DNA of 59,377 nt from an uncultured Lachnospiraceae bacterium (GCA_964464905.1 CAYXHC010000002.1:1-59377); one strand, 5' to 3'. Counted from the stretch's first letter, positions 28,550 through 51,391 are shown. Notes: generated by a model not told the origin, from the sequence alone. A program made the numbers and translations.

Positions 28550-29911
28550 ATGCTTAACGTAAAGGCAATAAGGGAAACCGTAAATATGATACGCGAGGAG
28601 AACCTCGACATCAGAACGGTCACTATGGGCATCTCTCTTTACGATTGCCAGAGCGACGATATCGGCCGTCTTTGCAACAAGATCTATGATAAGATCACAA
28701 AAAGTGCAGGCCGTCTTATGTCTGTGACCTCCGAGCTTGAGAGCCGCTACGGTATTCCGATCATAAACAACCGCATATCTGTCACTCCCATCTCGTATAT
28801 GGCAGGTGGTTTTCATTCCACCGATGACCTTATAAAGCTTGCAAAAACACTCGACCGCGCCGCCGAGAGCATCGGTGTGAACCTTATCGGCGGTTACAGT
28901 GCAATGGTGCAGAAGGGCGCAACTAACGGTGCTGACCTTCTGATAGAAAGCATCCCGGAGGCTCTCGCTGAGACCGACCGCGTTTGCTCATCTGTGAACG
29001 TCGCCTCCACCAAGGCGGGTATCAATATGGATGCCGTTGCCAAGATGGGGACCATCGTGAAGCGTGCCGCAATGCTCACGAAGGACCGCGATTCCATCGG
29101 CGCAACAAAGCTTGTCGTTTTCGCAAACGTTCCCGAGGATAACCCCTTTATGGCGGGCGCATTCCATGGCACGGGCGAGCCCGAGCGCGTTATCAACGTG
29201 GGCGTATCAGGTCCCGGTGTCGTTGCCGCCGCCATCAAGCGTGCGGGCGACTGCGACCTTACCGCTATCGCAGAAACTATCAAGCGTACCGCTTTCAAGA
29301 TAACACGTGTGGGTCAGCTAATCGCAACGGAAGCGTCCAAAATGCTTGACGTTCCCTTCGGTATCGTAGACCTTTCTCTCGCACCCACTCCTGCTATCGG
29401 CGACTCCGTTGCATATATCCTTGAGGAGATAGGACTTGAGCGCTGCGGCGCTTGCGGCACCACCGCAGCTCTCGCAATGCTGAACGACGCCGTGAAGAAG
29501 GGCGGCGTTATGGCAAGCTCCCATGTGGGCGGTCTTTCCGGCGCTTTCATTCCCGTTTCCGAGGATGCAGGTATGATTGAAGCCGCGTCCATAGGCGCAC
29601 TTACTCTTGAAAAGCTCGAGGCTATGACGGCAGTATGCTCCGTCGGTCTTGATATGATCGCCATCCCCGGCGATACCCCCGACGAGGTGATCTCCGGCAT
29701 CATCGCCGACGAGATCGCCATCGGCGTCGTGAACAATAAAACGACGGCTGTTCGCCTCATTCCCGCCATCGGCAAGACTATCGGCGACGAGGTGAACTAC
29801 GGCGGACTTTTCGGCAGAGCACCCGTTATGCCCGTGAATACCTATTCCCCTGCGCGTTTCATCGGCCGCGGCGGTCGTATTCCCGCACCTATCCATAGTC
29901 TCAGAAACTGA
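28550..29911 (+). CDS. UPF0210/DUF711-family protein
   Basis: 453 aa with N-terminal [24 protein letters not shown], typical of this family. Confidence 0.85.
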
Positions 29912-29996: not shown

Positions 29997-31067
29997 TTAT
30001 GCGTGTTTTTCAAGGTCCTCAGCGACCTTTCTGAAGCTTTCGTTGTCTCGTATGAAGTCAAATCTACCGTCAGCGAGAGACTGCAATCTGTTAGCACAGA
30101 CACTGCCCTTGTAATTTTTCACAACGCTGTCCGTTTTGTGCTTCATGCGGTTCATCATCGGCGCCGTGTAATCCATATCTTTCAGCTCAGCGGCGATAAC
30201 ACTGTACCATGCGCATTCTTCGAGTGCTTTTAACGTGTTTTCACTGTCGTTCATTTCCGCATACCTGAATGCGATCCCACAGTAGTAACGCGATAGATCG
30301 TAAGCGCCGAAGCCTACGTTGCCGTCTGAAAACAAACGCTTGAGTATGTCGATTGCAAATGTGTATGCTTCAATGGCTTCTTCGGGTGAAAATGGCGCTT
30401 TATAGATCATACCCGTTGCCGTCATCGCTGCCGTGCGGATAAGGGACATTATATAGCTCTGACAAGCTTCAACGCCCTCTTCTCCGTCAAGGATCGCACA
30501 TCTGAGATCATCCTTCGTCGTGTGAAAGGAGCCGCCCATATCGGCATAATACAGCGCCTTTTCCATGTCAATATTTTCATAGGTATAACATAGCAGCTGT
30601 ATGGCACTTTTTCTTTGTTCCGTGTCGTTTGATCTTTGCAAAAGCTCCTCTCCGAGAGCAATTATACGTTCCGCCTCTGCTTTTGGGCAGGGATACACCG
30701 CATCTCTGTTTATAGCTTGCATAAGTCCTTCGATAACACGGCAATCATTTGGAAATTCGGAATACGCCTTTTCCCATATTTCAAGGTTTTTCTGATTTTC
30801 ACCGTTTTGACGGCAGATCTTGCTTTGCCGCTGATATTCGGAGATCGTTTCCTCGATTCTTATTTGATCCACAGAAAGCAGTTCATCGATGGTTACGTCA
30901 AAGAAAAATGCTATTTTGGGCAGTAAGGTTATATCGGGAAAGCCTTCGCCTCGCTCCCACTTACCAACGGATTGAGGGGTGATTCCAAGATGGTTGGCAA
31001 GAGCTTCCTGTGTGATGCCTTTTCCGACTCTAAGTGAACGCAATTTGTCTTTTAAGTTGATGTCCAT
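29997..31067 (-). CDS. XRE-family HTH regulator, paralogue of 19559-20728
   Basis: 356 aa. The HTH reads ITQEALANHLGITPQSVGKWERGEGFPDITLLPKIAFFFDVTIDELL. Confidence 0.85.
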   Translation of the reverse strand: MDINLKDKLRSLRVGKGITQEALANHLGITPQSVGKWERGEGFPDITLLPKIAFFFDVTIDELLSVDQIRIEETISEYQRQSKICRQNGENQKNLEIWEKAYSEFPNDCRVIEGLMQAINRDAVYPCPKAEAERIIALGEELLQRSNDTEQRKSAIQLLCYTYENIDMEKALYYADMGGSFHTTKDDLRCAILDGEEGVEACQSYIMSLIRTAAMTATGMIYKAPFSPEEAIEAYTFAIDILKRLFSDGNVGFGAYDLSRYYCGIAFRYAEMNDSENTLKALEECAWYSVIAAELKDMDYTAPMMNRMKHKTDSVVKNYKGSVCANRLQSLADGRFDFIRDNESFRKVAEDLEKHA

Positions 31068-31195
31068 AGTATCACCTTCGTTTCGTAAAGTGTGATAAGC
31101 GCTTATCTTGATCCTATTATAGCAAACCTCCTACGTGCTTTCAAGAACCGCAAAGTTTACCGCAAGCGTGTTTTTACAACGGATAGTTGTGCGGC

Positions 31196-31232
31196 AAAAA
31201 GCCTCTGCGGAATATCTCCGCAGAGGCTTTTG
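31196..31232 (-). terminator. Terminator closing the phage-like cluster
   Basis: AAAAGCCTCTGCGGA(5-nt loop)TCCGCAGAGGCTTTT, directly after the stop at 31239. Confidence 0.85.
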
Positions 31233-31238
31233 CCGGGG

Positions 31239-31697
31239 TTACTTATTTTCGATCGTAAGCGTCAGATTTGCGGGAGTGATACGCCTGAGCATATCATAGA
31301 GAAGCCCTGCCTTTTCCTCCGACGCAAGCGAAACGCTCACGGAAAGGGAACACGCTCCCGCGTCCGCAACAACCGAATAGCCGTTCTTGCCGCATAAAAC
31401 GTCAAGCTTTCGCTTGAGATTTCGCATAGTGAAGGGAAGCTCGCCTGCCGTCATCGTCATAAGCCGGAATCTGCGTTCGTCCTCGGTCTCGGAGCTTTTC
31501 GGCATCACTCCGTATTGCTTTTCGTGCCGCTTCAGCCAATCTCCTTTGGCAGTGTTCACGAAGAAGCCGTCGAGCATTCCGCCCACGTCCTCGTATGCTG
31601 CGGCAATAAATGTATCCACCACGTCTCCGATGGCGCAAAACTCACGTATCTCCGAAAATATGGGCGGTAAATAGGAAAGGTAGCTTTTTTGCATCAA
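31239..31697 (-). CDS. Baseplate-associated protein, DUF2313/XkdU(YmfQ)-like
   Basis: 152 aa with YLPPIFSEIREF...FFVNTAKGDWLKRHEKQYGV...ERRFRL, which matches the family pattern. Follows the baseplate J gene. Confidence 0.6.
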   Translation of the reverse strand: MMQKSYLSYLPPIFSEIREFCAIGDVVDTFIAAAYEDVGGMLDGFFVNTAKGDWLKRHEKQYGVMPKSSETEDERRFRLMTMTAGELPFTMRNLKRKLDVLCGKNGYSVVADAGACSLSVSVSLASEEKAGLLYDMLRRITPANLTLTIENK

Positions 31698-32785
31698 AGC
31701 ACCGTCACCTCCTTGAAAACGGGAACGTGATCCTCACCAAGCGTGATGTTACCGGTAACGTATGTGCCGTCGGAAACGGAATAAAACCTGGTGTTCGTAA
31801 CGTCGTCAACGCAACCGGAAGCGAGGATGTAGCTTTCAAGCTGTGAGATGCGAAGAACGGGAACCTCCGTCACTTCCCATTTTGACGCAACGGAATCGAT
31901 GTAAGTCTTAACCGCATCCGTAATGTAAGGCGCCGCCGTGTCAGCGTCCCATCCGTTGGCAAAGGTAAGCTTCGTTTCAACGGAAACGGGATATTCGGTC
32001 GCCCCCGTAACCGTTACCTTGTGACCGACGGGGGCAACTCCTGCGCCCTCACCGGAGTACATATCGGGATCGAGAAGTGATTTTACAGCAGAGATAACGT
32101 AAGCCGAAGGCGCACCTCCGTGAACTGCCTGAAGCACTATTTTGACAGTTCCGCCTCCGTTCCAGGCTGGATGCACCTTCACACCGCCAACTCCATCAAC
32201 AGCCTTTACGGAGTTGATGTAATCTGCCTTGTTGCCCCCGTAAGAAACGTTTGTCAACGCCGTGGAAACACGCTCTCGAAGTGAGTCGGTGTCTTCTTCG
32301 TCCGCGCCTCTGTAAATGACGGAGATGGCTTTTGATACGGACAGTCCCTCAATATAAGAAAGCGGGATCAGGTCGCCGGAAGTTCTGAGCGCAGGCTTTG
32401 ATCCTGCAGTGTCACACGTCAGCTCGTAAATGTAATAACCTGCTGACGAGTAAACAGCGTCGCCGCGGCTGTATGTGTATTCGTTGAGCGAGAATTTCGC
32501 CCCATCGGGGATCGCAACGTTGAATTGACCGTTTATACGGGTGTACGTTGCAGGCTCACGCTTGATCCCGAGGATCGAAGCGTGATGCAAAAGCGCGGTC
32601 TCGGATGCAGAATCTGGGAAGACGTCGTTGGCTATGCCGTCACAGAGTGAGTATAGCTTGGCGAGCTCCGCTGCCACCGGAGCAACCGCATCGTAAAAGA
32701 TAGAGCCGCATGCCGTGTCAATGTCATCGGGCGCGGCGGCAAGCATATCGCAGAGAATGTTCTCAAAGCTTTTGTTTTCAAACAT
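31694..32785 (-). CDS. Baseplate J-like protein (XkdT-like)
   Basis: 363 aa with an N-terminal GSIFYDAVAPVAAELAKLY...ALLHHASILGIKREPAT pattern. Confidence 0.8.
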   Translation of the reverse strand: MFENKSFENILCDMLAAAPDDIDTACGSIFYDAVAPVAAELAKLYSLCDGIANDVFPDSASETALLHHASILGIKREPATYTRINGQFNVAIPDGAKFSLNEYTYSRGDAVYSSAGYYIYELTCDTAGSKPALRTSGDLIPLSYIEGLSVSKAISVIYRGADEEDTDSLRERVSTALTNVSYGGNKADYINSVKAVDGVGGVKVHPAWNGGGTVKIVLQAVHGGAPSAYVISAVKSLLDPDMYSGEGAGVAPVGHKVTVTGATEYPVSVETKLTFANGWDADTAAPYITDAVKTYIDSVASKWEVTEVPVLRISQLESYILASGCVDDVTNTRFYSVSDGTYVTGNITLGEDHVPVFKEVTVL

Positions 32786-33131
32786 TAAAGACCTCCGTTA
32801 ATGTTTTTTGATTTTCGTGTGTATTCAGATGTACCGTCAGCTTTAGGATACCTTCGTCGAAGACGGCAGATATATCCGATACCTTAAAGTCATCTCCGCA
32901 GCGTTTCTCCACCTCCTCGGTGATCTGCCGTTTGAGCATCGAAACCGCGTAAGGTATGCGCGCGGAATAAAGAATTCTGCGTGATATGCCATAGGATCTG
33001 TCATAAATAGGGTGTTCGCCGCGTTCTGTTTCGAGCATTAAAAATATGTTGAGAAGTCCTGCGTCAATACCTGAGACGGTCCCCGCAAGACGGAATCCGT
33101 CGCCGTCTTTGATCAGTGAATATGTCTTCAT
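32778..33131 (-). CDS. Baseplate wedge protein, XkdS/DUF2634 (gp25-like)
   Basis: 117 aa. Assigned from size and its position between the XkdR-like and baseplate J genes. Confidence 0.5.
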   Translation of the reverse strand: MKTYSLIKDGDGFRLAGTVSGIDAGLLNIFLMLETERGEHPIYDRSYGISRRILYSARIPYAVSMLKRQITEEVEKRCGDDFKVSDISAVFDEGILKLTVHLNTHENQKTLTEVFNV

Positions 33132-33150
33132 TTATATGTGTTCCTTTCAT

Positions 33151-33444
33151 TCAATCACCGATAACACCAACGATAAGATATTTTTCGCCGCCAACGGCAC
33201 GGAACATAACGACCTTCGCTCCTGCTGTAAGCTTGTCGCGGAAGGATACCGTTCCTTCAACACCGTCTACGAGCGCGGCTTCATCACTGCCGGTGACGTG
33301 CTTCGGAACGATGATACGCGGCTCAGTTACGATAAGAGTCGGATCGATGCGAACCGATAAAGGTGAAGTGCTGCTGACGGTTCCGCAGATAATATCGGCT
33401 GAGATTTCGTTTTTATCGATTACGTCTGTTCGTTTGCTTTGCAT
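33151..33444 (-). CDS. XkdR/DUF2577-like baseplate protein
   Basis: 97 aa ending FRAVGGEKYLIVGVIGD, typical of this family. Syntenic position. Confidence 0.5.
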   Translation of the reverse strand: MQSKRTDVIDKNEISADIICGTVSSTSPLSVRIDPTLIVTEPRIIVPKHVTGSDEAALVDGVEGTVSFRDKLTAGAKVVMFRAVGGEKYLIVGVIGD

Positions 33445-33456
33445 AATCAGTCTCCT

Positions 33457-34362
33457 TTACACGGATGAGAGCGTAAGCTTCGCTGATGAACCGTAAAGGC
33501 CGTATATCAACTCCGACTCTTCACATATCATACGCTTTTTTTCGTCACCTATCAGAACATCAACGGCAGCACCGCTGCGGATCGGCATAACGAGATCGAT
33601 AGTCTCACACTTGACAGTCGTAAGCGGAAGAGCAGACGAAGAGAGTATTCCGGTGCCGGTAGCCGTCGCGTTTTCAACGAATGATAAAGTTCCGAGATAT
33701 GACAGATGTCCGTATCTTGCAATTGAGCCGTCATCCCTGAACTGATGATAAACACGCCCGTTTTCAGTAGCTTCTATAAGAGAAACGTCATTGTAAACGT
33801 TTTCGTCAATGCTTTCGGTCACGGTAAATTCACGGCATATATGAGGATATATGGCGATCCCCTGATTAAGCGAATCAGCGTCGGACAGACATATCTTGCC
33901 GAAGTCGTCGTATAAAACGTAGTCGCCATAGCCTGCCAAAGACGTAAGCGACAGCGCATTTCCGATTATGGAAAATAGCTCGCGTCCGTCGTCGATCTGC
34001 GCGCTTATCTTCATTCTTGTGTCAGCTATCACGCCCGTTGGGATCCCGTAGCCGTTACAAAGTATAGTCAGAAGCTCGCCTGCGGTCTTGTCACTGTACA
34101 GTATCGTCGTCTTGTTTTTGAAATATCGCAAAAGATCATAGGCGAGACATTCGTATCCGCTGTTCGTTTTAGAAACCGTGAATACCGTTCCCTTGAAAAT
34201 GCTTTTGCCTTCTCCATAGAATATTACGCTGTCTCCGACAGCCACCTTGTCAAGAGACTTGAAAGTGAATCTGCCCGGATTCAGTCCGCGTCGGGTATTG
34301 TAGCAGGCATCTCCGGACTGAATAACAGGGCTTCCGTTTATATATAGCGCCGATCTTTTCAA
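33457..34362 (-). CDS. XkdQ/YqbQ-like baseplate hub protein (gpD-like)
   Basis: The conserved body carries ECLAYDLLRYFKN...AGELLTILCNGYGI. A TTG start was chosen, overlapping the upstream TGA (TTGA) and following a GAGGTG RBS. The ORF-track ATG at 34473 lies inside the upstream gene. Confidence 0.6.
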   Translation of the reverse strand: MKRSALYINGSPVIQSGDACYNTRRGLNPGRFTFKSLDKVAVGDSVIFYGEGKSIFKGTVFTVSKTNSGYECLAYDLLRYFKNKTTILYSDKTAGELLTILCNGYGIPTGVIADTRMKISAQIDDGRELFSIIGNALSLTSLAGYGDYVLYDDFGKICLSDADSLNQGIAIYPHICREFTVTESIDENVYNDVSLIEATENGRVYHQFRDDGSIARYGHLSYLGTLSFVENATATGTGILSSSALPLTTVKCETIDLVMPIRSGAAVDVLIGDEKKRMICEESELIYGLYGSSAKLTLSSV

Positions 34363-34775
34363 CCTGACACCTCTGCCGTTTTGTAACGACGGGCTTTGAT
34401 AGTTACTGTTACGCCGCCCTCGTGATAAACGCTCATCATCTCTTCCGAAATGACCGTCATGTTTATGTCGCATATAACTCGGTCCTCATCGTCAACTCCC
34501 AAAAGCACGAGCTCAAAGGGAACTGCCAAGCGTGACATAAAGTGATCACTTACAAGATCGGGAGTGACAAGTACGCTGTCACCGTATACGTGTTCGGACG
34601 GAGCATCGGATACCGTAAGCTCAAGAGAAATTTTTACGGGTGCAGCAGGTGTGGCAAAAACGTGATAGCTCCCGTCCGAGATCGTTATGTAGTCAGAACC
34701 TCCTTCGGAAATGACGGATACAGATGACGGTGGCATAGGCATAAGAGTGCCGTCAATGTAAAGATAAAGCTTCAT
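34359..34775 (-). CDS. XkdP-position tail/baseplate protein without a recognisable LysM domain
   Basis: 138 aa. The pattern LPMPPSSVSV...ISLELT...PFELVLLG...MTVISEE...VTVTIKARRYK resembles, from memory, proteins found just upstream of XkdQ in clostridial myophage tails. Confidence 0.4.
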   Translation of the reverse strand: MKLYLYIDGTLMPMPPSSVSVISEGGSDYITISDGSYHVFATPAAPVKISLELTVSDAPSEHVYGDSVLVTPDLVSDHFMSRLAVPFELVLLGVDDEDRVICDINMTVISEEMMSVYHEGGVTVTIKARRYKTAEVSG

Positions 34776-34842
34776 CGTGTCCTCCTTTTACACGCATCGT
34801 GCGTAGAAATAGATATTTAATGATCTTCATAAAGCCTCCGTT

Positions 34843-36036
34843 TTATAGAGATGCAGATATCATAATTCCGTTAGGACGCGAGATGTGTGCATCTGTGACC
34901 GATACAGATACAGCACCGCCTTCATCGGCGGAAACCGAAACCGTAGGCGCAGTTGAAGATATACCGTATCTGCAATAAAGCTCCGAAAGTGAATCAGCAA
35001 TATCCTTTTGCAGATAAGAAACTCCTGCACCATTGGCTCGAACCACGCCAAGATAGCGATCATTGAAAATGCCGTTTATCCTGCGCAGCATTTCATCTTT
35101 CAGTCTCACCTTAAAATTGTCGGCAAGCTTGGTATCCTCGGAGCTGTTATTATCCCTGATAACGTAAGCGTCGCCGTTTGTGTAGGCAAGAACGAGCCTG
35201 TTGTAAGGCACCGTGGCTGCAGCATGCTCGTTGTCAAAGGCGGCGGGATCAAAGGAGCCTTCGTATCTTTCTCCTACAGCGCTTCGGTAAAATGGAAGAC
35301 TCGCCAGAAGACCGGCAATATAATATATCGCTCCTCTGTCACCGCCGCAGCAGGCAACCGACGTGATCGCAGCGGAGCCGGGTGCTGAGATCTCAGCCGC
35401 AGTGACTCCCTTTATAGTTCCGCCGTTACCGCGAATATCTTCGATGAAATCCGAAAATACGGCAACGATCGGCGCACTCGTTTCACCGGATACGATAATA
35501 TCAGACGTTACCGTAGACAATGTGTCAAGACACTCTTTGTAGTTGAATTCATTTATGATCATATCCTGCCCGCCCGTGAAAGGAATGCCAGACGTAATAA
35601 ATATCTCTGAATCGTAAAATATAACGTAATCGTTATCGGCAGGACGGCAGCCGCTCGGTACGCTCTGATCGTCAACGATAGCACCGTCAACGTAAGTCGT
35701 GATCAAAAAAACGCCGTCGGTTTCCTTGACACTGACGGTTATTCTGTTGCCGGAGGTGCCCTTGTATTTTGCGCGCCCGATAACTGATATGGCGTATTCG
35801 CCTCCGTGAGGGCGGCAACAGTAAACGCGCGAGGCTCTTTTCAGTATATCGGAAAGAGCGTCTCTCGCAGTATCGCTGAATAAACGCTGACTTTTAAGCG
35901 CGAAAGGATCGGTGAATTCTATGATCTCACCCGAAGGACCCCATCCGGTGTCAAGAACGACCGAAACGGTTCCGTTTCGTGCGTTATGTCCAATAATAAG
36001 ATCCGATACTTTTGTTTTCGATCCGTAAATATCCAT
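34843..36036 (-). CDS. Contractile tail sheath protein
   Basis: Sheath-like blocks: AKYKGTSGNRITVSV, YYIAGLLASLPFYRS, GDAYVIRDNNS and FKVRLKDEMLRRI...DRYLG. ATG at 36036 follows GAGGTG; the ORF-track TTG is at 36051. Confidence 0.7.
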   Translation of the reverse strand: MDIYGSKTKVSDLIIGHNARNGTVSVVLDTGWGPSGEIIEFTDPFALKSQRLFSDTARDALSDILKRASRVYCCRPHGGEYAISVIGRAKYKGTSGNRITVSVKETDGVFLITTYVDGAIVDDQSVPSGCRPADNDYVIFYDSEIFITSGIPFTGGQDMIINEFNYKECLDTLSTVTSDIIVSGETSAPIVAVFSDFIEDIRGNGGTIKGVTAAEISAPGSAAITSVACCGGDRGAIYYIAGLLASLPFYRSAVGERYEGSFDPAAFDNEHAAATVPYNRLVLAYTNGDAYVIRDNNSSEDTKLADNFKVRLKDEMLRRINGIFNDRYLGVVRANGAGVSYLQKDIADSLSELYCRYGISSTAPTVSVSADEGGAVSVSVTDAHISRPNGIMISASL

Positions 36037-36043
36037 TTTCACC

Positions 36044-36460
36044 TCAGCCAAGCGTTATTTTTACGTCAACGGACGCCATCGTGATGGGACTTTCGCCGTT
36101 GCTGCCGTATTCGAAAAAGAGCGACGGAAACGAATAAGCGGCTGTTACATCAAAATACCGTCCGCAATGACGGCACTCGTACTTCTGTACGGTCAGTTCC
36201 CGACCGCCAAGCGTGATCCGTCCGATAGCATTGAGTATACCTCCATCGTCACCGAGCATCATATCCGGTGAAAAATATCGGATCCTGAAAGACACCGTGC
36301 ATTCACCGCTGCCATCGGAGTATATTTTATCCGTCGAAAGAAAAAGCGTCCCCTCTGGAGCATCGGCAGGTATTGCACCTGCCGATGTGATAACGCTTGA
36401 TAACGTTGAAAGAGAATTTTTTAAAGCACTGAAAAAGCCGTAATCAGCGTCTCTTTTCAC
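36044..36460 (-). CDS. Hypothetical neck / tail-terminator candidate
   Basis: 138 aa. GTG start overlaps the upstream stop (GTGA) and follows AGGAGG. Assigned by position only, between the adaptor and the sheath. Confidence 0.35.
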   Translation of the reverse strand: MKRDADYGFFSALKNSLSTLSSVITSAGAIPADAPEGTLFLSTDKIYSDGSGECTVSFRIRYFSPDMMLGDDGGILNAIGRITLGGRELTVQKYECRHCGRYFDVTAAYSFPSLFFEYGSNGESPITMASVDVKITLG

Positions 36461-36837
36461 CAGCGTATCCTCCTGTATTTTTTCGCTCTGTCAAGACCGC
36501 GGCAGCGCATTTTGCCACACGCTGAAAGCTTGCGTTCAAGCTCCGTCGTGCCGGATGCGTATTTGAGCGAAAGATCACCGTCGCTTTTCGAGGTGACGGC
36601 TCCCTTTGCACCACCGTCGCCAAGAAGGGACGCTTCTGCATAATCGGCAGCCGAAATATCGGCAACAGACTCCAGAAGCTCGTCGGGCAATGTCTCTATC
36701 GCGCAAATAAGCAGTATCTCATCCGTAACGGAATCAATGATGGTATCAAGTATGCCCAGATCACATTCGCGGGGAGAGATGTGAAGGGAGATAAGCCGTT
36801 TTTCTATCCCCGCTTTTATCTTTCCGCGATAGTTCAT
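36457..36837 (-). CDS. Head-tail adaptor (gp6-like connector) candidate
   Basis: 126 aa, immediately after the capsid gene (TGATG overlap). Has the acidic helical N-terminus typical of adaptors. Confidence 0.45.
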   Translation of the reverse strand: MNYRGKIKAGIEKRLISLHISPRECDLGILDTIIDSVTDEILLICAIETLPDELLESVADISAADYAEASLLGDGGAKGAVTSKSDGDLSLKYASGTTELERKLSACGKMRCRGLDRAKKYRRIRW

Positions 36838-37874
36838 CAGCCGAGAGATATGATACGCGCAACGGGAATGAGCTTTTCGTCGATAACATCGCCGTTTTCG
36901 CTGGTGGCAAGCTCCCAGTTGGCGCCGTCGGAAAGTTCATCGTTGGTGGGGGAAAGCGTCGCCTGAGAGGACTTCACGTAGTCGAAGCCGAAGGGGTGAA
37001 GTACCTTGCGCTGACGGGAATAGAGAATGTCACAGCCGCCTTCCTCAGCGGGAGAACGATGCATCTCGTAGGGCACCTTTGCGCCGATGTTTTCGTAGAA
37101 GAAAGCACCCTCGCCAAGCGCGTAGGTGGTGTATACCGTGTTGCCGTCGCCGTCCTTTGATACGGGGAGACTGTCCGTAATAATGACGGACTTGCCGTTC
37201 CATGTGCCGATCGAAAGATCACGGGTGATACCGTCTTTGTCAGTGTAGGTGAGATAATTCATGAGCTGAAGATTCTCAAGGTTGGTTGCAACGGCGGAGT
37301 GCATAAGTACGGCACGGAACTTGCCCTTTGCAGAGCCGCAAGCGCGCTGGATCGCCGCGTTGAGAGAGGTGGCGCTGATCTGGGGGATCTCCTCGCCGGT
37401 AATATCGTAGGTGTGGGCGTCAACGAAATCAGCCTTCGCTTCATCGCCGCCATCGGCAAACATACCGCTGAGAATGGAGAGAAGAGTTGCTTCGTCAACC
37501 TCCTCCCAGTATTCCGCAACCTGCTCGGCAACGGTGTCCATATAGTCAACGCCCGCAATGTCACAAGCAAAATCGCGCTCGCTCCATGCGTTTGCGCGGC
37601 CGATCACCACGGCGCCGAACTCGTAACACGGAGTTTTCTGAGGAGTGATGTCACCAACACCGTCATAGTTCTGAGCAACGCCTGAAATCGCGCCGTAAAG
37701 AGGTACCTTGGCGTAAGCAGCATTGCCTGCACCGCGGAAAAGGGAACGGATCTCGCTGTTGCCGACGAAAACTCGGCGAGCAAGCAGCTCTCTCGTCTTC
37801 AAGGTAGGTACACGGCCAACGTAATCGCCGAATACTGCCGAATCAAAAATTTTAGAATCAAACTGTCCCTGCAT
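36837..37874 (-). CDS. Major capsid protein
   Basis: About 345 aa, following the scaffold gene. The start at 37874 (MQGQFD...) follows a GGAGA RBS; the ORF-track start at 37898 lacks one. Confidence 0.7.
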   Translation of the reverse strand: MQGQFDSKIFDSAVFGDYVGRVPTLKTRELLARRVFVGNSEIRSLFRGAGNAAYAKVPLYGAISGVAQNYDGVGDITPQKTPCYEFGAVVIGRANAWSERDFACDIAGVDYMDTVAEQVAEYWEEVDEATLLSILSGMFADGGDEAKADFVDAHTYDITGEEIPQISATSLNAAIQRACGSAKGKFRAVLMHSAVATNLENLQLMNYLTYTDKDGITRDLSIGTWNGKSVIITDSLPVSKDGDGNTVYTTYALGEGAFFYENIGAKVPYEMHRSPAEEGGCDILYSRQRKVLHPFGFDYVKSSQATLSPTNDELSDGANWELATSENGDVIDEKLIPVARIISLG

Positions 37875-37962
37875 ATATTTCTCCATTCTGCCGTTCATAA
37901 CGGCATAAAATTTATTTAGTATGTAATTAATTTCGCGGTCGCATTATCAAGCGTTCCGCAGA

Positions 37963-38382
37963 TCATTTGTACAGTCTCATATATTCGCTGTATGAAAGCT
38001 CTCCCGTATCGGAGATATCATCAGAAGCCTCAACGGGAGAGATCCCCACGAAGGTGTATACCGTCGTCTCGTTCTTCGTCTCGTCGCTCCCGAAAAGAAA
38101 GGGCATACTATCTTTAAGAGATGACACCGCCTCGGAAAGACCTGACGGTGTCCCGTCAAAGTCCTCACCGTCCCATTCGTAGCCAAGCACAGCAGAGGCA
38201 GCGCGGGTGTTTCGTGCACCGGCGCGCTCCAGCGCGCTTTCAACGGCAAAGCGGTATTTATCCTCAAGACGTCGTCTTTCGTAATCAGAGGTCACGGTGT
38301 CTAACTCCTCGGATAAGGCTGCAAGTATAATTTCTGCGTTGGCAGGCTCAATGCCAAGATCAATCAAAAAATCAATATTCAT
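37963..38382 (-). CDS. Capsid scaffolding protein
   Basis: About 139 aa, acidic and helical, lying between the portal and capsid genes. ATG at 38382 follows AAAGGAG. Confidence 0.5.
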   Translation of the reverse strand: MNIDFLIDLGIEPANAEIILAALSEELDTVTSDYERRRLEDKYRFAVESALERAGARNTRAASAVLGYEWDGEDFDGTPSGLSEAVSSLKDSMPFLFGSDETKNETTVYTFVGISPVEASDDISDTGELSYSEYMRLYK

Positions 38383-38428
38383 TAATAGGCTCCTTTTAGT
38401 GAAAATCAACTTGTATCACGGTGTAATT

Positions 38429-39769
38429 TTATGTAAGTCCGAGTCGTTCCAGCTCGTCGTCAACGTCGTGAACGAGAGGGTGAGACGCAACGAGGGTGCG
38501 TTTTGATAAAATATCAGCGGATGAATTGAGCGCTCCGACAGCCGCAGCCTCATTCACTAAAAGATCGCGGTTGAAGCGTATCTCGGCTTCGGAACAGCGA
38601 AAATCTCCTTTACCCGTGTAGAAAAGATAAGAGCGGATGTAGCCTATCCATTCGTCGATCGCGCATCCAAGCTCTGCTTCAAAGCCGTTTGCGTCAAGAT
38701 CAATGTCGGAATATATCGCCAGAATGTTCATCCGGTTAGGATTGCTTCCGAGACGCGAATCGTTGGAATCAAAGCCACGGCAGCATTCCACCAAAGCCTC
38801 GGAAAGCTGATTCTTCAGCGTTTCGTAGTTCGTTGCATCCACCTTTATCGAAAGAGTATCAACGCCGCCCTCGCCGCCTCCATCGGAGCGCACCTTCACA
38901 GCTCCGTAAGCGGCAAGATTGCGTCTGAATTCACCCAGATCCTCACCGTCAAAATTCTTCAGTACCAGAACGGTGTTTCTGCTGTTTTCCGACATATTGT
39001 CGCAAAAATCGGATTGAAGCTCGTTGAGTGCATCCTGAATACATTTTGCCCGTCTTATCATCGGGATCGCTCCGGCGTTATACTTTACCGGAATAACGGG
39101 AACACGGTCCCATCTGTAACACTCACCATCGTTATCCCTGAAATGATATGGCGTGTCAGCAACGAAACGAAGCTCGCCACCGCGGTATTCATATTCTTCG
39201 GTTCCGTTGCAGGTGTAAACGAAAACGCGCTTTTTTACGCATCGCTTTTTACCCTCGTAGTATTCTTCGGGGGAAACGCGCAAAAGCATATCGAGCTTCG
39301 TGTGTGCTGCGTCGTGCCAGAATGGCAAGCAGTTGGCCGAGTCGAATAAATAAAGCTTCAGTTCGCCCTTCTCATCGATGTAAGGGTGAAGCCAGGCAAT
39401 ACCGCATCCCATAGACTCGGTGGCGGCAAGACGCCAGAGCAGCTGCCCCTCCTTGCCGAAATATTTTTTTATTTCAGCGGAAAAAGCCTTGTCGGGCACG
39501 TTGCGTGTGAACGGCTTTCCCAATGAGTAATTTACCTTCTGGTCTATTATCCTCCCGTATTGATTGTTTACAATACGGGTGCAGGGAAGCTTGTCAAGAT
39601 TTATAACGTCGCCGTCAGCTCCGATAGCGGTACGATGACGTCGCAGAATGTCGTGTTCGCCGCGATAATATCGCTTTGCGTCACGAGCTTCCTTTCTTGC
39701 GTGGGATGCAAGAAAGGAAGCAGTTTCCGCCGAAAGCATACTTAAATAAGAATTTGTTATGTGTTTCAT
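38429..39769 (-). CDS. Portal protein (SPP1 gp6-like)
   Basis: 446 aa. An N-terminal YYRGEHDILRR...NNQYGRIIDQKVNYSLGKPF pattern is typical of this portal family. Confidence 0.8.
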   Translation of the reverse strand: MKHITNSYLSMLSAETASFLASHARKEARDAKRYYRGEHDILRRHRTAIGADGDVINLDKLPCTRIVNNQYGRIIDQKVNYSLGKPFTRNVPDKAFSAEIKKYFGKEGQLLWRLAATESMGCGIAWLHPYIDEKGELKLYLFDSANCLPFWHDAAHTKLDMLLRVSPEEYYEGKKRCVKKRVFVYTCNGTEEYEYRGGELRFVADTPYHFRDNDGECYRWDRVPVIPVKYNAGAIPMIRRAKCIQDALNELQSDFCDNMSENSRNTVLVLKNFDGEDLGEFRRNLAAYGAVKVRSDGGGEGGVDTLSIKVDATNYETLKNQLSEALVECCRGFDSNDSRLGSNPNRMNILAIYSDIDLDANGFEAELGCAIDEWIGYIRSYLFYTGKGDFRCSEAEIRFNRDLLVNEAAAVGALNSSADILSKRTLVASHPLVHDVDDELERLGLT

Positions 39770-39841
39770 TAAACCGCAGTTCCTCCTGTCGCGGTAAGAT
39801 TGCGTATTTCTGATGCTCGGAAAAGAGATAACGTAAAACGG

Positions 39842-41077
39842 TCAAAAACTGAAGTTCATACCGCTCGTCGCATCGGAAACGGCGTAACGCATCGCATCCA
39901 TCAAATGATCGTTTTTTCCGACCGGACGGTTGACGGCGTTGCCGCTGCTGTCCGTGTCCCAAACGTAACCGCGTATCTCTCCGATAAAATTTTTACAAAC
40001 AGGCGATATTACGATGTGGTTGCGTGCCACGGTGTCTATTCCGGAAAGAATGCTGCCATGCCTCTTCGACGAGGGCACGATGCGCCTTATCCCCATGGAT
40101 CGAAGCTCGTCAACAGATTTCGGCTCTGCTGAATCGGCAACGATGCGGCATCTCCCGTAGCCGCGCCCCTTGATAAGCGCCGCAAGACGATCGTTGGTCA
40201 GTCCCCGTTCGTATATTTCGTCGTAAACGAAAAGCTCCCGCCTTTCCGTAGACAAAAGACCGCAAAAAAGAGCGGTAGGGTCGTTGGTGTAGCCGAAATC
40301 AAGACCAAGCACCGGCAAAAAGCCATGCTTTACAAGAATATCGCGGTCGAATTCCCGTATTTCGTACGAAGGATAAACGAGACCGCTGACAGCACCCCAT
40401 TTGCCGAGTCCCGCCGTTCGGTAACGTTCGGGACGTTCACGCTTCATGGTCTCGAAAAGCGTAATGTCAGCCTCGTCAAGAAATTCGTTGGTCTTGTAGG
40501 TCGTCGTCATCCGTAAAACGTCGGGCGACTCGGGCGCATCAAAGAAGCGCCGCTTAAGCCAGTGCCCTTCGTTCCAAGGGTTGAAAGTTACCGTCAATTG
40601 CTTGAAATATCCGGTAGGTACGTACCCTCTTATAAGCTCGTCTATCATATCAAAGTCAGCCTCGTCTGAGATCTCAAAAGCCTCCTCGCACCAAAGCCAG
40701 CATAAAACTCCCCTTGAGACCGAAATGGACGTAAGCTTCATCGGATCGTCGAGTCCTTTGAAAAAGATTTTCTGCCCCGTGATTTTTCTCGTTATTTCGA
40801 GAGGGGATGTTTTGAATTCGAATTCTTTCAGCACACCGAGCCGCTCAGCCGCCCATTTAAGCTCCGTGTAGCACGAACGCTCAAGAGACGCGTAAGTGCG
40901 TCGTACCACCAAAAGATTTGCAAGCGGATATTTCAGTAAATGATAAATATACCAAAGCGCCGTCGTTTTCGACTTCTTCGAAGCACGAGAGCCCTTGATA
41001 ACGCGGTATCTTCCGCGAAAATTCCAGAATCTTTCGTAGCCTCTCCCAACGGTGCGGTATAGGTCAATCTTCTTCAT
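39842..41077 (-). CDS. Terminase large subunit (PBSX-type)
   Basis: Walker A-like KGSRASKKSKTTA and a C-terminal nuclease region. ATG at 41077 follows GAGGAAA; the ORF-track TTG is at 41125. Confidence 0.85.
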   Translation of the reverse strand: MKKIDLYRTVGRGYERFWNFRGRYRVIKGSRASKKSKTTALWYIYHLLKYPLANLLVVRRTYASLERSCYTELKWAAERLGVLKEFEFKTSPLEITRKITGQKIFFKGLDDPMKLTSISVSRGVLCWLWCEEAFEISDEADFDMIDELIRGYVPTGYFKQLTVTFNPWNEGHWLKRRFFDAPESPDVLRMTTTYKTNEFLDEADITLFETMKRERPERYRTAGLGKWGAVSGLVYPSYEIREFDRDILVKHGFLPVLGLDFGYTNDPTALFCGLLSTERRELFVYDEIYERGLTNDRLAALIKGRGYGRCRIVADSAEPKSVDELRSMGIRRIVPSSKRHGSILSGIDTVARNHIVISPVCKNFIGEIRGYVWDTDSSGNAVNRPVGKNDHLMDAMRYAVSDATSGMNFSF

Positions 41078-41552
41078 CAGAGTCTGTTTCCTCAGTAATG
41101 TCGGCAAGGAACTTCTCCTCGCCAACGAAAATTACACTATCGTGATCGTCACCCTCGCCGTTGAAAATGCCGTATCGACGCGCCAGCATTTCCGCTGCAC
41201 TCATCCGTTCTTTGACAGACGCGGATTTGTTTATAACGCGCGCGCACCGCTCTGTCTTACCTTCCTTGCCGGTCCTTTGCTCAACGACTACCACGGGGTC
41301 GTGAACGTCTCCGCGCATAACGGACGTCAGCATTTGCAGAATCTCTGTAGGATCTGCAACTGCACTCGGCCGATCAGCCTTAAGTTCAACGCCTTGTCCG
41401 CAGAGCTTCCCAAGCAGAGCGGAAGCGGCGCCGAGCCGTTTGTAACCGGCGTCTTTTGCTGCCTCTTCGGGGTCCATCCCCGATCTGTATAATTCCAAAA
41501 AACGTCGTTGTCTTTCGTTCAAATCGTTAATGATTCCTCCGTTCTCACCCAT
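41064..41552 (-). CDS. Terminase small subunit
   Basis: 162 aa with N-terminal LNERQRRFLELYRSGMDPEEAAKDAGY. Immediately upstream of the large subunit. Confidence 0.6.
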   Translation of the reverse strand: MGENGGIINDLNERQRRFLELYRSGMDPEEAAKDAGYKRLGAASALLGKLCGQGVELKADRPSAVADPTEILQMLTSVMRGDVHDPVVVVEQRTGKEGKTERCARVINKSASVKERMSAAEMLARRYGIFNGEGDDHDSVIFVGEEKFLADITEETDSDEED

Positions 41553-41636
41553 AGGGCGTGAATAAACAAAATGAACACAAACACAAAGTTCGTGTGTGAG
41601 CCTTATTCCAAATACAGCCTCAAATAAGGAAAAAGC

Positions 41637-41933
41637 TCAAACGATCATTGTTCGGGCGGTGTACTTTTCACAGCGCCGCCGTGCATACTGTTCATCATAT
41701 TCTCCAAGGGCGAAAGCAACCTGCTGCCAGGTCATACCGTAAAGATAACGGAGCGTTAAAGCAGAACGGTCGAAATGATCGGTAACGCTCGAAATGCGAT
41801 CGTGAAAATCCTCATATCGTCGGGATAACTCGTCTGTACGCTTTTTCATATCGTTACGTAAGCGAAGTATACGCGCGTCATCCTCTCCGTCCGAGGTAAG
41901 CGACGCCTTTCTCAAAAGCTCGAGCTCGCACAT
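41637..41933 (-). CDS. Sigma-70 region-4-like HTH protein (candidate late-gene activator)
   Basis: 98 aa with LTLRYLYGMTWQQVAFALG, which resembles a sigma region 4 / RinA-ArpU-type HTH. Positioned upstream of terS. Confidence 0.45.
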   Translation of the reverse strand: MCELELLRKASLTSDGEDDARILRLRNDMKKRTDELSRRYEDFHDRISSVTDHFDRSALTLRYLYGMTWQQVAFALGEYDEQYARRRCEKYTARTMIV

Positions 41934-41985
41934 CTCTCTTTCGAGAAGACGAAGCTCGCTGCGGATGCCTTTTACGGTACGTAGG

Positions 41986-42270
41986 TTAATAGCGATCGCC
42001 CGATCTCATGACTTTTCCGGAAAACTCGGAAATTGCTTCCGTAACGGACGAAAATCCGCATATATCGAGGATCTCGGAAATGGAAAAGTTTTCGATGCAT
42101 TCGTCGCAAACGATTCCGTCGCCGTCTCCGTCGGGATTATATATGTAGCTTTGACCGTGAGAAATGATCTCACCGCAAAGCGAACAGCGAAGTGAGCCTA
42201 CGCTCCCTTCGTCAATGTCGAGCGGGCACCCGTCTATGTGCCCGAAATCGTAATCGCAAATGTCACACAT
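41986..42270 (-). CDS. Cys-rich (CxxC x3) small protein, first gene of the block
   Basis: 94 aa with CDIC, CSLC and CDEC pairs. A GGTGGTGA RBS lies 6 nt upstream. Confidence 0.5.
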   Translation of the reverse strand: MCDICDYDFGHIDGCPLDIDEGSVGSLRCSLCGEIISHGQSYIYNPDGDGDGIVCDECIENFSISEILDICGFSSVTEAISEFSGKVMRSGDRY

Positions 42271-42288
42271 CAGATTTCACCACCAATC

Positions 42289-42302
42289 AGAACAAATGTT
42301 CG
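42289..42302. promoter_or_regulatory. LexA-type SOS box 1
   Basis: AGAACAAATGTTCG (GAAC-N4-GTTC), 19 nt upstream of the ATG at 42270. Confidence 0.7.
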
Positions 42303-42317
42303 TATTTTGAGCGATGT

Positions 42318-42342
42318 AAAAACGCGCCGGGAGCGCGCGTTT
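42318..42342 (-). terminator. Terminator-like hairpin within the leader of the phage-like operon
   Basis: The minus strand reads AAACGCGC(7-nt loop)GCGCGTTT followed by TTTAC, about 10-35 nt downstream of the predicted transcription start. Confidence 0.5.
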
Positions 42343-42357
42343 CCACATCGTGCCTAT

Positions 42358-42386
42358 ATTATACCATAAATCGCCAAATAATTCAA
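42358..42386 (-). promoter_or_regulatory. Extended -10 sigma-A promoter of the phage-like operon
   Basis: The minus strand reads TTGAAT, 17-nt spacer, TATAAT, with the last three spacer bases TGG giving TGgTATAAT. Confidence 0.7.
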
Positions 42387-42395
42387 TAGTCAAAA

Positions 42396-42409
42396 AGAAC
42401 AAATGTTCG
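42396..42409. promoter_or_regulatory. LexA-type SOS box 2
   Basis: AGAACAAATGTTCG, identical to box 1 and 10 nt upstream of the -35. Its right half is part of the perfect 18-bp palindrome GTTCGTAAATTTACGAAC (42406-42423). Confidence 0.7.
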
Positions 42410-42462: not shown

Positions 42463-42491
42463 TTGACAAGGAAAAACACATATTTTATAAT
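42463..42491 (+). promoter_or_regulatory. Sigma-A promoter of nfo
   Basis: TTGACA, 17-nt spacer, TATAAT. Confidence 0.65.
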
Positions 42492-44172: not shown

Positions 44173-44204
44173 ATTATATAATATCCGAATTATATAATAT
44201 CCGA
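44173..44204. repeat. Perfect tandem direct repeat, 2 x 16 bp
   Basis: ATTATATAATATCCGA occurs twice. Each unit contains the 10-bp palindrome ATTATATAAT. Confidence 0.9.
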
Positions 44205-48560: not shown

Positions 48561-48793
48561 AAACTGTATGTCCTCCGAAAGGTGAATTAAAAAAGTTTGT
48601 ATCGACGTTTATCGACGATAGTTGATAATATTATATTGCAGTATATATCGAAAGTCAATAACAAGATTTTATAATATTACGAAGATGCGTATTTGATATT
48701 TGATCAAAATTAATATCTTTGCCTTGTATTCGTATGCGCTAATGTTGTATAATGATCTGTACCGTACATTCAAGAACGAAACCGGAGAAAATA

Positions 48794-49477
48794 ATGAAAA
48801 AGAATAAGAATAGCTTGCACGATGAAAATATCACCGCGAATGCCAGCGCAAAGAAAAAACAGAAAAAGGGCATAATCATTGCCTTTGCCCTGATGCTGAC
48901 GATAATACTTCTCACCTATGTTATCATCCCGGGGATTTCTTATATTGCCGAAAAGATCAGGGACGCAAACGACGACGGCTACAAAAGCGACTATATGGAC
49001 GATATAAAGAGCCTCTCCTTTTATCCTGCTGACTATAACGAGAATATATTCGAGGATGAAGAATATATGAGCCGAAACCGTTATATCGCATACACGAAGG
49101 GGAGCGATACCTTCATAATCACAAATGACGATTACTCCATCTACGATCCCACAGTCGGATTTTTTGCCGAGTATTTTGATACAGTAATTAACGGCAGATA
49201 TGAAGAATACGACAGCTATTTCACCGAGGAATATTTCGAGAATCAGAAGAATAAGGAGCGATTCACTCCTCAAAAGCTATACGATATCGAGATAAAGCTG
49301 AAAAGCACAAGCGAGATAGAGGGCGCTACGTCATATATATACTACGTCAATTATAAAATATGCAAGAATAACGGCACCTTCCGAAACGATATGGAAAGCG
49401 ACGCCTGCCGTACCCTTGTGTATGAGCTTCACCTTTACTACGACGAAACGATCCTTATAAACTATATCGGCAGATAA
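48794..49477 (+). CDS. Hypothetical single-pass membrane protein
   Basis: MKKNKN... follows a GGAGAAAATA RBS. One TM helix (IIIAFALMLTIILLTYVII) and a Tyr/Asp-rich external domain. Confidence 0.6.
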   Translation: MKKNKNSLHDENITANASAKKKQKKGIIIAFALMLTIILLTYVIIPGISYIAEKIRDANDDGYKSDYMDDIKSLSFYPADYNENIFEDEEYMSRNRYIAYTKGSDTFIITNDDYSIYDPTVGFFAEYFDTVINGRYEEYDSYFTEEYFENQKNKERFTPQKLYDIEIKLKSTSEIEGATSYIYYVNYKICKNNGTFRNDMESDACRTLVYELHLYYDETILINYIGR

Positions 49478-49509
49478 AAAGATCCCCGAGTCTCTCGGGG
49501 ATCTTTTTT
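49476..49509. terminator. Bidirectional terminator overlapping both convergent stop codons
   Basis: AAAAAGATCCCCGAG(4-nt loop)CTCGGGGATCTTTTT. Confidence 0.85.
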
Positions 49510-49777
49510 ACATCGTCGCTATGTAATCCTCAACGGCGTCATAAAAATGGATGGGAGATAAGGAAAGCCTGTTGCAAAGCTTAACGAAACGGGAAAGTCC
49601 CTTGCTTGACGAGGATATGTTCGGTACCACCTTGAGTATCATCGTTATGTCTCCTTCGTTCACGCAAAGGGCGATCCCATAGGTCTTTTCGCTTACGTCG
49701 GACCATATCAGCTCGCTTTCAAAAACGTTATATATATAACCCATTTTGTTTGAGGTGTTGTCTTTAGTGTTCTTCAT
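49508..49777 (-). CDS. Small hypothetical protein (89 aa)
   Basis: Intact ORF bounded by a terminator on one side and a promoter-like motif on the other. No function recognised with confidence. Confidence 0.55.
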   Translation of the reverse strand: MKNTKDNTSNKMGYIYNVFESELIWSDVSEKTYGIALCVNEGDITMILKVVPNISSSSKGLSRFVKLCNRLSLSPIHFYDAVEDYIATM

Positions 49778-49863
49778 GCTTAAAAAGCTCCTTTCGACCG
49801 GAATGATTGTGTCGGAAATGAGCGCGGTCGTTCATTCCCCATATATATATCAGTAAAAACGAG

Positions 49864-49875
49864 CGAAAATTATCG
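49864..49875. promoter_or_regulatory. Near-palindromic 12-mer, copy A
   Basis: CGAAAATTATCG, 12 nt upstream (minus-strand sense) of TGATATATA (complement of 49844-49852). Confidence 0.5.
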
Positions 49876-49958
49876 GTTTTTCGATAAAAAGTTTTGAAAA
49901 ATTGAAAATACACAAATAAAGTCTGGTATATAGGACGTTATTTGGTGTGCGTCCGCGC

Positions 49959-49999
49959 AAAAAAAGCGCCGTCCGAAAAAACTCGGGCGGCGCTTTTTG
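49959..49999. terminator. Terminator downstream of the secreted-protein gene
   Basis: AGCGCCGTCCG(8-nt loop)CGGGCGGCGCT, flanked by A-runs and T-runs. Confidence 0.75.
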
Positions 50000-50019
50000 T
50001 TATTTTTGCGTGTGCCTTA

Positions 50020-50409: not shown

Positions 50410-50421
50410 AGTAATAGCTCC

Positions 50422-51309: not shown

Positions 51310-51352
51310 TATGTACGCCTCCTCTCTATAATATATATCACTTTTTTTTGAG

Positions 51353-51364
51353 CGAAAATTGTCG
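51353..51364. promoter_or_regulatory. Near-palindromic 12-mer, copy B
   Basis: CGAAAATTGTCG, 13 nt upstream (minus-strand sense) of TGATATATA (complement of 51332-51340), in the gap between the sigma and anti-sigma genes. Confidence 0.5.
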
Positions 51365-51391
51365 GTTTTTTTGAAAGTTTTCAAAAAAATC

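Follow-up and report, generated by a model that had tools for sequence, protein, structure and literature searches.

PBSX of Bacillus subtilis, a defective, non-infectious phage-like element that DNA damage induces and that is regarded as gene transfer agent (GTA)-like, encodes a tube (XkdM), XkdN and a tape measure (XkdO), together with fibres, a lysis cassette, an Xre repressor of its own and a late sigma factor. FpGTA of Faecalibacterium prausnitzii (Nat Commun 2026; preprint 2024) is near-ubiquitous in its host clade and forms particles without a visible tail (PMC12946183); the capsid and portal proteins of its operon I are RCH50849.1 and RCH50851.1. Nanopore data on gut virus-like particles revealed that GTA-type packaging is abundant in Ruminococcaceae and Oscillospiraceae; no responsible locus was found for most of these taxa (PMC12946183). 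Here we describe an element in 59,377 nt of the genome of an uncultured Lachnospiraceae bacterium (GCA_964464905.1 CAYXHC010000002.1:1-59377). This stretch, hereafter the window, is all of the host that is visible. The element, at 42270 to 31239 on the minus strand of the window, combines phage head genes with parts of a contractile tail and is, as judged from its sequence, a strong candidate for a new GTA-like particle.

The initial annotation had described sixteen co-directional, intact open reading frames (ORFs) for a head and a contractile baseplate, closed by a terminator. ORF calls, Pfam and PHROGs confirmed the sixteen minus-strand ORFs at 31239-42270 (g1-g16), and the terminator is real:

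41986..42270, minus strand: g1, the operon's first gene, a Cys-rich, Zn-ribbon-like protein of 94 aa (weak Zn_ribbon match)
41637..41933, minus strand: g2, 98-aa DUF1492/sigma-70 region-4-like regulator, RinA-like, of the phage late-activator type (weak DUF1492/sigma-r4 match; phrog_36, E 5e-8)
41064..41552, minus strand: g3, TerS, small terminase (Terminase_2) with its N-terminal helix-turn-helix (HTH) region kept (PF03592 and PHROGs)
39842..41077, minus strand: g4, TerL, Terminase_3 plus RNaseH-like nuclease domain (PF04466, PF17288 and PHROGs)
38429..39769, minus strand: g5, SPP1-type portal (PF05133, E 1e-61, and PHROGs)
37963..38382, minus strand: g6, scaffolding protein (PF06810 and PHROGs)
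36837..37898, with the start rather at ~37874, minus strand: g7, major capsid protein (phrog_247, E 5e-80)
36457..36837, minus strand: g8, head-tail adaptor (phrog_132; weak gp6-like match)
36044..36460, minus strand: g9, 138-aa tail terminator/collar with the fold of lambda gpU and diffocin CD1362 (structure model and Foldseek)
34843..36036, minus strand: g10, contractile tail sheath, 397 aa (phrog_279, E 3e-23)
34359..34775, minus strand: g11, 138-aa tube-tail/tube-initiator ring (XkdP N-domain, diffocin CD1367) without LysM (structure model, Foldseek and profiles)
33457..34362, minus strand: g12, baseplate hub (YqbQ/XkdQ, P2 gpD-like) with a TTG start (PF24032, E 8e-49)
33151..33444, minus strand: g13, spike/XkdR (DUF2577; Pfam and PHROGs)
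32778..33131, minus strand: g14, sheath initiator, gp25-like, XkdS (PF10934)
31694..32785, minus strand: g15, baseplate wedge/triplex, Baseplate_J, XkdT (Pfam; PDB matches phiCD508 gp65 and diffocin CD1371)
31239..31697, minus strand: g16, wedge/triplex partner, Mu gp48, XkdU (Pfam and PHROGs)
31196-31230, minus strand: intrinsic terminator closing the operon, AAAGCCTCTGCGG-N-CCGCAGAGGCTTTTT (read from the sequence)

Four start codons were revised: TerL at 41077, the capsid at ~37874 (backed by orthologs and a Shine-Dalgarno motif), the sheath at 36036 and XkdQ at 34362 (TTG, by orthology). With ortholog-supported starts, the tight gene junctions of the initial annotation were reproduced, with overlaps of 14, 1, 4, 4, 8 and 4 nt, and Shine-Dalgarno motifs precede most genes. 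The GC content is 0.47-0.52 over the element and no different in the flanks, in line with the earlier impression of no base-composition shift. The capsid protein shares 54% identity with that of Clostridium phage phiCT453A. Late activators of the DUF1492/sigma-r4 type, which g2 resembles, often lie upstream of terS in Firmicutes phages.

Pfam and PHROGs identified no integrase, repressor, replication, lysis, tube, tape-measure or fibre genes in the whole 59-kb window, which bears out the earlier statement that integrase, repressor, replication and lysis genes are missing. The window also contains no tRNA and no att-like flanking direct repeats, and att repeats or integrase remnants at the borders, named beforehand as evidence against domestication, are not present. 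The other 48 kb of the window encode host functions, including ilv/leu biosynthesis, ABC transporters, ComEC, DUF711, nfo, metF/metH, FBPase and UxaC.

Related loci, all from metagenome-assembled genomes (MAGs) or metagenome contigs, were gathered through a sheath search of a 5.8-billion-protein collection, a genome contig scan and look-ups of g9 homologues. The sheath has just three clusters in that collection, one of which (53% identity) lies on an NCBI MAG contig, L001 (GCA_045586225.1; L001 and L002 represent a Eubacteriales MAG). L001 carries the identical gene series with near-equal gene lengths, between the same nfo/MBL (metallo-beta-lactamase)-fold genes and the same XRE gene. The contig scan and g9 look-ups added L003, L095, L096, L004-L007, L089-L094 and L097. 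Altogether, at least eight further uncultured lineages of Eubacteriales/Lachnospiraceae carry the element at the same locus (at least nine lineages with the window), and on all contigs that reach a flank it lies between the nfo/MBL-fold genes and a DUF711 (UPF0210) gene. Of the two host neighbours proposed initially, nfo is thus conserved and the XRE gene is not; the conserved boundary on the far side of the element is DUF711 (28550-29911), which XkdU abuts directly in L003, with no XRE gene between.

The XRE-HTH gene (29997-31067) was considered as an AimR- or Xre-like regulator of the element and rejected, being absent from L003 and from all head-only loci described below. It has its own near-consensus promoter (31116-31144) and is an insertion common only to the window and L001, where sugar-metabolism genes follow it. 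The XRE-HTH proteins encoded at 29997-31067 and 19559-20728 are 356 and 389 aa long and have large C-terminal domains without a Pfam match.

The element occurs in two forms. The tail-bearing form is found in the window, L001/L002, L003 and L095/L096, the last two being short contigs that end soon after the sheath gene. A sister clade (L004, L005, L007, L089, L091-94 and L097) carries a head-only form at the same nfo ... DUF711 locus. It consists of g1, g2 (where present), TerS, TerL, portal, scaffold, capsid, adaptor and a 131-aa g9 homologue, after which host genes follow; the sheath and baseplate genes are absent and the ORFs are all intact. The head-only elements lie at:

L004:5993-11842, head-only element
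L005:1096-6889, head-only element
L007:5738-11848, head-only element
L089:39-1895, head-only element
L091:4211-10396, head-only element
L097:3709-9838, head-only element

Two of these loci, L004 (6271-6476) and L005 (1377-1518), lack g2 and keep g1 and the promoter/LexA region; g2 is therefore dispensable. A full-length prophage at this locus in relatives, which the initial annotation had named as contrary evidence, was not found: the relatives carry the compact or the head-only module, with ratios of nonsynonymous to synonymous substitution (dN/dS) well below 1.

Under strong purifying selection, the head-only clade has retained precisely the packaging and capsid genes together with adaptor and terminator. 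This is what one might expect of an immobilised satellite whose own capped, DNA-filled heads join the tails of co-induced prophages in SOS-synchronised fashion, since the capsids of phage-inducible chromosomal islands of the capsid-forming kind (cf-PICIs) use foreign tails (bioRxiv 10.1101/2025.02.11.637232) and LexA control would coincide with prophage induction. However, the lack of integrase, replication and att features, together with vertical inheritance, indicates that the element is not a PICI. The clade of the window keeps its own sheath and baseplate under selection, which would be needless if tails were borrowed, and no helper phage is known. Tail piracy is therefore an unlikely explanation.

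All genes of the element are under purifying selection. Between the window and L001, all sixteen genes have dN/dS values (Nei-Gojobori) of 0.06-0.27 at dS of about 0.7-2, which is near saturation, so that these values and those that follow are approximate and the qualitative conclusion is robust. The other locus pairs, including those within the head-only clade, give 0.02-0.43, and the head-only loci 0.02-0.31. The small first gene g1 is 59-85% identical in all loci (dN/dS 0.13-0.31), and TerL shares 89% identity with its L001 ortholog (dN/dS 0.07). Head proteins of the window and L001 are 84-89% identical, compared with 85% for the flanking nfo and 81% for the MBL-fold gene; identity is lower, at 54-66%, for collar, sheath, tube tail, hub, spike and sheath initiator. 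Divergence of the element matches that of the flanking host genes, and the identity matrices of nfo, TerL, portal and capsid have the same topology, with {window, L002} and {L003, L095} on one side and {L004, L005} and {L007, L091, L097} on the other. This congruence of host and element, which repeated insertion or decay would not predict, indicates that the element is vertically inherited. The fixed locus, the dN/dS values of 0.02-0.43, the conserved regulation described below and vertical inheritance support the initial view of an element that is maintained, and probably domesticated, rather than decaying.

The missing genes could still suggest the leftover of a deleted myovirus prophage in slow, functionless decay: the element lacks essential tail genes and every lysis and lysogeny gene, the tail genes diverge faster than the head genes, and the sister clade has deleted them. 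Against this, the ORFs are intact and their lengths conserved at dS of about 1 or more, the dN/dS range is that given above, the regulatory DNA is conserved (including a hairpin with compensatory changes), and the retained parts form a coherent structural set. Identities of 53-89% exclude the recent transfer of a single sequence among the loci. An inert remnant is thus very improbable, and simple decay can be regarded as effectively excluded by these sequence comparisons.

The initial annotation had also noticed a host-type, SOS-boxed promoter. The promoter is real and has two boxes. On the operon strand, the 300-bp interval between nfo and g1 contains, in order, box 1, the promoter, a stem-loop, box 2, the ribosome-binding site GGTGGTGA and the ATG of g1:

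42397..42408, minus strand: LexA (Cheo-type) box 1, CGAACATTTGTTC, directly upstream of the -35 (CGAAC(A/T)TTTGTTCG in 8 loci, at fixed spacing)
42358..42386, minus strand: sigma-70-type promoter, TTGAAT, 17-nt spacer, TGgTATAAT (extended -10; TGGTATAAT invariant in 8/8 loci)
42313..42349, minus strand: leader stem-loop of ~16 bp plus U-tract, a few nt past the predicted transcription start (conserved in 8 loci)
42290..42301, minus strand: LexA box 2, ACGAACATTTGTTC, just upstream of the g1 ribosome-binding site (invariant in 8/8 loci)

Two identical ACGAACATTTGTTCT boxes thus bracket the extended -10 promoter, and the whole can be written as a composite motif, CGAACWTTTGTTCG-N(about 26)-TGGTATAAT plus the leader hairpin. 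The Firmicutes LexA/DinR consensus is CGAACRNRYGTTYC, and both boxes fit it. The core GAAC-N4-GTTC occurs three times in the window, compared with 1.1 expected by chance, and two of the three copies are at the element promoter. A stronger argument than this count is conservation: in all eight loci in which the regulatory region was compared, the whole layout is kept within 151-153 nt from box 1 through the first g1 codons. Direct control of the operon by LexA is therefore predicted, with good support at the sequence level. Pairing in the hairpin is kept through two compensatory AU<->GC changes among the eight loci. Rfam has no family for this hairpin, nor any match elsewhere in the window; the hairpin may serve as a 5' stabiliser of the mRNA or as a terminator/attenuator.

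A second promoter, that of nfo (42463-42491, plus strand), diverges from the element promoter and has a perfect sigma-70 consensus (TTGACA, 17-nt spacer, TATAAT), its -35 and -10 being conserved in related loci. LexA box 1 lies ~55 bp upstream of the nfo -35, so nfo is probably not LexA-repressed.

The tail genes were resolved part by part. The two 138-aa ORFs, g9 and g11, have no sequence-family match in Pfam or PHROGs, and the structural comparison suggested for them at the outset assigned both: AlphaFold2 (AF2) models, of moderate confidence (predicted local distance difference test scores of 69.5 for g9 and 67 for g11), gave a collar fold for g9 and a tube-type fold for g11 in Foldseek searches. 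The top matches of the g9 model, built on a 13-sequence alignment, are the monocin cap, the diffocin collar, Listeria antigen B, lambda gpU and the pyocin R2 collar; an hhalign comparison of g9 with the ORF upstream of the phiMMP01 sheath region was uninformative. The protein labelled earlier as a neck candidate is a tail terminator/collar.

A C-terminal segment of g9 of ~20 residues (...VDVKITLG; window 36044-36110) is found only in sheath-bearing loci, where the protein is 138-140 aa long, whereas the 131-aa homologues of head-only loci lack it (for example, L004:11447-11842 and L007:11453-11848). The segment has low confidence in the AF2 model, as expected of an extended arm. In diffocin, an R-type bacteriocin of C. 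difficile, a C-terminal strand of the collar CD1362 joins the handshake of the last sheath layer (PMC10996793). The co-occurrence of arm and sheath supports a continued collar-sheath interaction. The sheath itself, g10, matches the prophage sheaths 3HXL and 3LML in the PDB at E of about 1e-14 and is ~25% identical to phage sheaths; the conservation profile along it has no domain-specific pattern.

The g11 model has a tube-type fold; Foldseek ranks chains of the diffocin baseplate and the baseplate of phiCD508 highest for it, ahead of tubes and tube initiators from contractile injection systems. The fold cannot by itself tell a tube from a tube initiator, but sequence profiles can. In the PDB, the g11 family profile has its best sequence match in CD1367, the "tube tail" of diffocin, and hhalign pairs its whole length with the N-domain of LysM proteins of the XkdP type, from phiCT9441A (E 1e-3) and from phiMMP01 (E 4e-5, probability 69%). 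No match to the phiMMP01 tube protein was obtained with hhalign. A role of g11 as the tube was therefore rejected. The XkdP-like call of the initial annotation holds, for an N-domain without LysM: by its sequence profile, g11 is predicted to be the XkdP/CD1367 ring between hub and tube, its LysM domain gone, which leaves the element without a true tube gene. Similarly, g16 spans about the first 150 of the 534 positions of phrog_521 and is an N-terminal wedge core without the fibre-docking part.

The cryo-EM (cryo-electron microscopy) parts of diffocin are the sheath CD1363, tube CD1364, tape measure CD1366, tube tail CD1367, hub CD1368, spike CD1369, sheath initiator CD1370 and triplex CD1371 plus CD1372 (PMC10996793). 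Genes g9-g16 map one-to-one, in order, onto CD1362, CD1363 and CD1367-CD1372, skipping CD1364-CD1366 and the fibres. Diffocin fibre genes sit downstream. In ordinary relatives the tube, chaperone and tape-measure genes lie exactly between the sheath and XkdP genes, an interval that is here reduced to a 67-bp gap between sheath and g11. The loss of the length-filling and length-setting genes was thus a clean excision, older than the divergence of the window, L001 and L003 lineages, and selection has acted on the remaining parts ever since. The cluster encodes both ends of a contractile tail in full; it has no tube, chaperone, tape-measure or fibre gene.

A gene order like that of XkdK and XkdP-U and of diffocin CD1362-CD1372 could point to a PBSX- or diffocin-like tailocin that kills by sheath contraction, and SOS control is typical of bacteriocins. 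However, the cluster offers no tube for crossing an envelope, and tape measure, fibres and lysis cassette are missing too; its head genes are the best conserved and most constrained; and the head-only sister loci cannot kill by sheath contraction. We consider a killing particle highly unlikely.

The missing parts might instead be encoded elsewhere. The locus would then be only the main operon of a GTA with a normal contractile tail, whose tube, tape measure, chaperone, fibres or receptor-binding protein and holin-endolysin lie at distant loci. RcGTA genes are also split across loci. FpGTA has this very layout, with operon II 125 kb from operon I (PMC12946183). Just 59 kb of the genome is visible here, and purifying selection on the sheath and baseplate would be easier to explain with a working tail. 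The genes in question, however, are normally inside the block, between sheath and tube tail, and relocating precisely those is less parsimonious than deletion. None of the tube, tape-measure, fibre or lysis genes is in the 59-kb window, and the head-only sister clade tolerates the absence of tail genes at the locus. A split locus is possible, and it is the less probable explanation.

Our preferred reading, to which we assign a probability of about 0.6 on sequence grounds, is that the element is a phage-derived, immobile cluster kept by the host at one site under LexA, that is, a viriform or GTA-like element. It is a packaging and structural cluster without integration, lysogeny and replication modules, at a fixed locus and under purifying selection, as viriforms are. 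On this reading, DNA damage would lead to LexA cleavage and to transcription of the operon from its single promoter, with g1 and the late-activator-type g2 tuning expression. Scaffold, capsid and portal would build procapsids, which TerS and TerL would fill with DNA by a headful mechanism. Because TerS keeps its HTH region, packaging may begin at a chromosomal pac site. Adaptor and terminator/collar g9 would then close the portal vertex, and in the clade of the window a collar arm of the diffocin kind would clasp the last sheath layer. Since the tube, chaperone, tape measure and fibres are absent from the cluster, the tail would either be a stub in which baseplate and collar all but meet, or receive its missing parts from a second locus, after the manner of FpGTA.

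A more specific and rather doubtful proposal is that the 16-gene form builds a particle of a kind not seen before, a DNA-filled capsid whose tail is reduced to its two ends, with the collar set directly on the tube-tail ring of a complete inner baseplate, only one or two sheath layers spanning the two and neither tube nor tape measure. The sister clade would then make naked capped heads, and the two forms would reflect stepwise tail reduction in a host-owned, LexA-triggered DNA-packaging organelle.

Several points weigh against the GTA-like reading, in addition to the approximate dN/dS values. No lysis genes were found in the window, which leaves particle release unexplained. The tail genes evolve ~3 times faster than the head genes and were lost in the sister clade, so the tail may matter less than the head. 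We know of no contractile tail that assembles without a tape measure and tube, and a functional "stub tail" is, to our knowledge, unprecedented. TerS retains a DNA-binding-type N-terminus, unlike RcGTA TerS, which fits site-initiated better than random packaging. Finally, the family is rare, with a dozen or so contigs found: two scans of JGI metagenome contigs (portal and capsid alignments) gave no match, and in IMG/VR the nearest portals are those of distant phages at no more than 45% identity, no family member being catalogued there as a virus.

Three further features of the window lie outside the element. A gene for a ComEC-type competence channel (24602-26824), which belongs to natural DNA uptake machinery, is ~4.4 kb from this candidate for DNA packaging, a proximity that may be coincidence. 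A lower-GC stretch (0.41-0.43) at 48752-51982 contains four ORFs without a convincing Pfam family, one of which (51392-51982) has weak sigma-factor-like PHROG matches; it may be an extracytoplasmic function (ECF) sigma/anti-sigma unit or a small island. At 44173-44204, in the intergenic region upstream of metF (MTHFR), a 16-nt unit is exactly duplicated in tandem (ATTATATAATATCCGA x2); Rfam detects no riboswitch there.

Very few GTA-like elements outside the Alphaproteobacteria have a known gene cluster. The family described here is a concrete candidate locus in uncultured gut-type Clostridia, with two LexA boxes as a regulatory handle. It raises the structural question of what function a sheath and a complete baseplate can have when tube and tape measure are missing, and why selection maintains them. 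The tail-bearing and head-only clades provide a natural comparison for separating the role of the head from that of the tail remnant.

Among known systems, FpGTA is likewise a chromosomal, non-mobile operon of ~10 kb in gut Clostridia, encoding TerS, TerL, portal, scaffold, capsid and small structural proteins, with further structural and lysis genes outside the main operon. It differs in being podovirus-like and in having baseplate, fibre and lysis genes at a second locus, and its paper mentions neither a sheath nor LexA (PMC12946183). Compared by description, the element has instead a myovirus-type set of collar, sheath, tube tail, hub, spike and wedge and two conserved LexA boxes. The initial annotation knew of no such minimal myovirus-type module in Clostridia; the myovirus-type set is distinctive, but the prior description of the GTA-like FpGTA (PMC12946183) makes the novelty narrower.

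PBSX shares the chromosomal location and the head and contractile-tail genes in the order sheath ... XkdP-Q-R-S-T-U. Unlike PBSX, the element has none of XkdM, XkdN, XkdO, fibres, lysis cassette, own Xre repressor and late sigma factor, the adjacent XRE gene being no constant part of the family, and its LexA control appears direct. Diffocin (CD1362-CD1374; PDB 8V3T, 8V3W) corresponds from collar to triplex in the same order, but has no head genes; it possesses the tube CD1364, the tape measure CD1366 and fibres, and its hub carries a hydrolase domain. An R-type tailocin would not carry the full head module present here, nor lack tube, tape measure and fibres.

The cf-PICIs resemble the element in their compact packaging, capsid and connector set without a complete tail, and the head-only loci resemble the morphogenetic half of a cf-PICI. 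However, cf-PICIs are mobile and have an integrase, alpA-type regulators, a replication module, att sites and helper-phage induction; the element has none of these and is, as argued above, vertically inherited. An inducible temperate prophage would be expected to show lysogeny, replication, complete morphogenesis and lysis modules, a composition shift or att borders, none of which is seen. RcGTA of the Alphaproteobacteria is similar in its vertical inheritance, purifying selection, lack of self-mobility and ~10-15 kb cluster, and in host regulation, which is predicted for the element. It belongs to an unrelated lineage and differs in its siphovirus-type particle, in a TerS without a DNA-binding domain and in control by CtrA and quorum sensing rather than LexA boxes. 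The family is distinguished by a myovirus-type collar, sheath and baseplate set without tube or tape measure, a head-only sister form and conserved dual LexA boxes, a combination that sets it apart from FpGTA as described.

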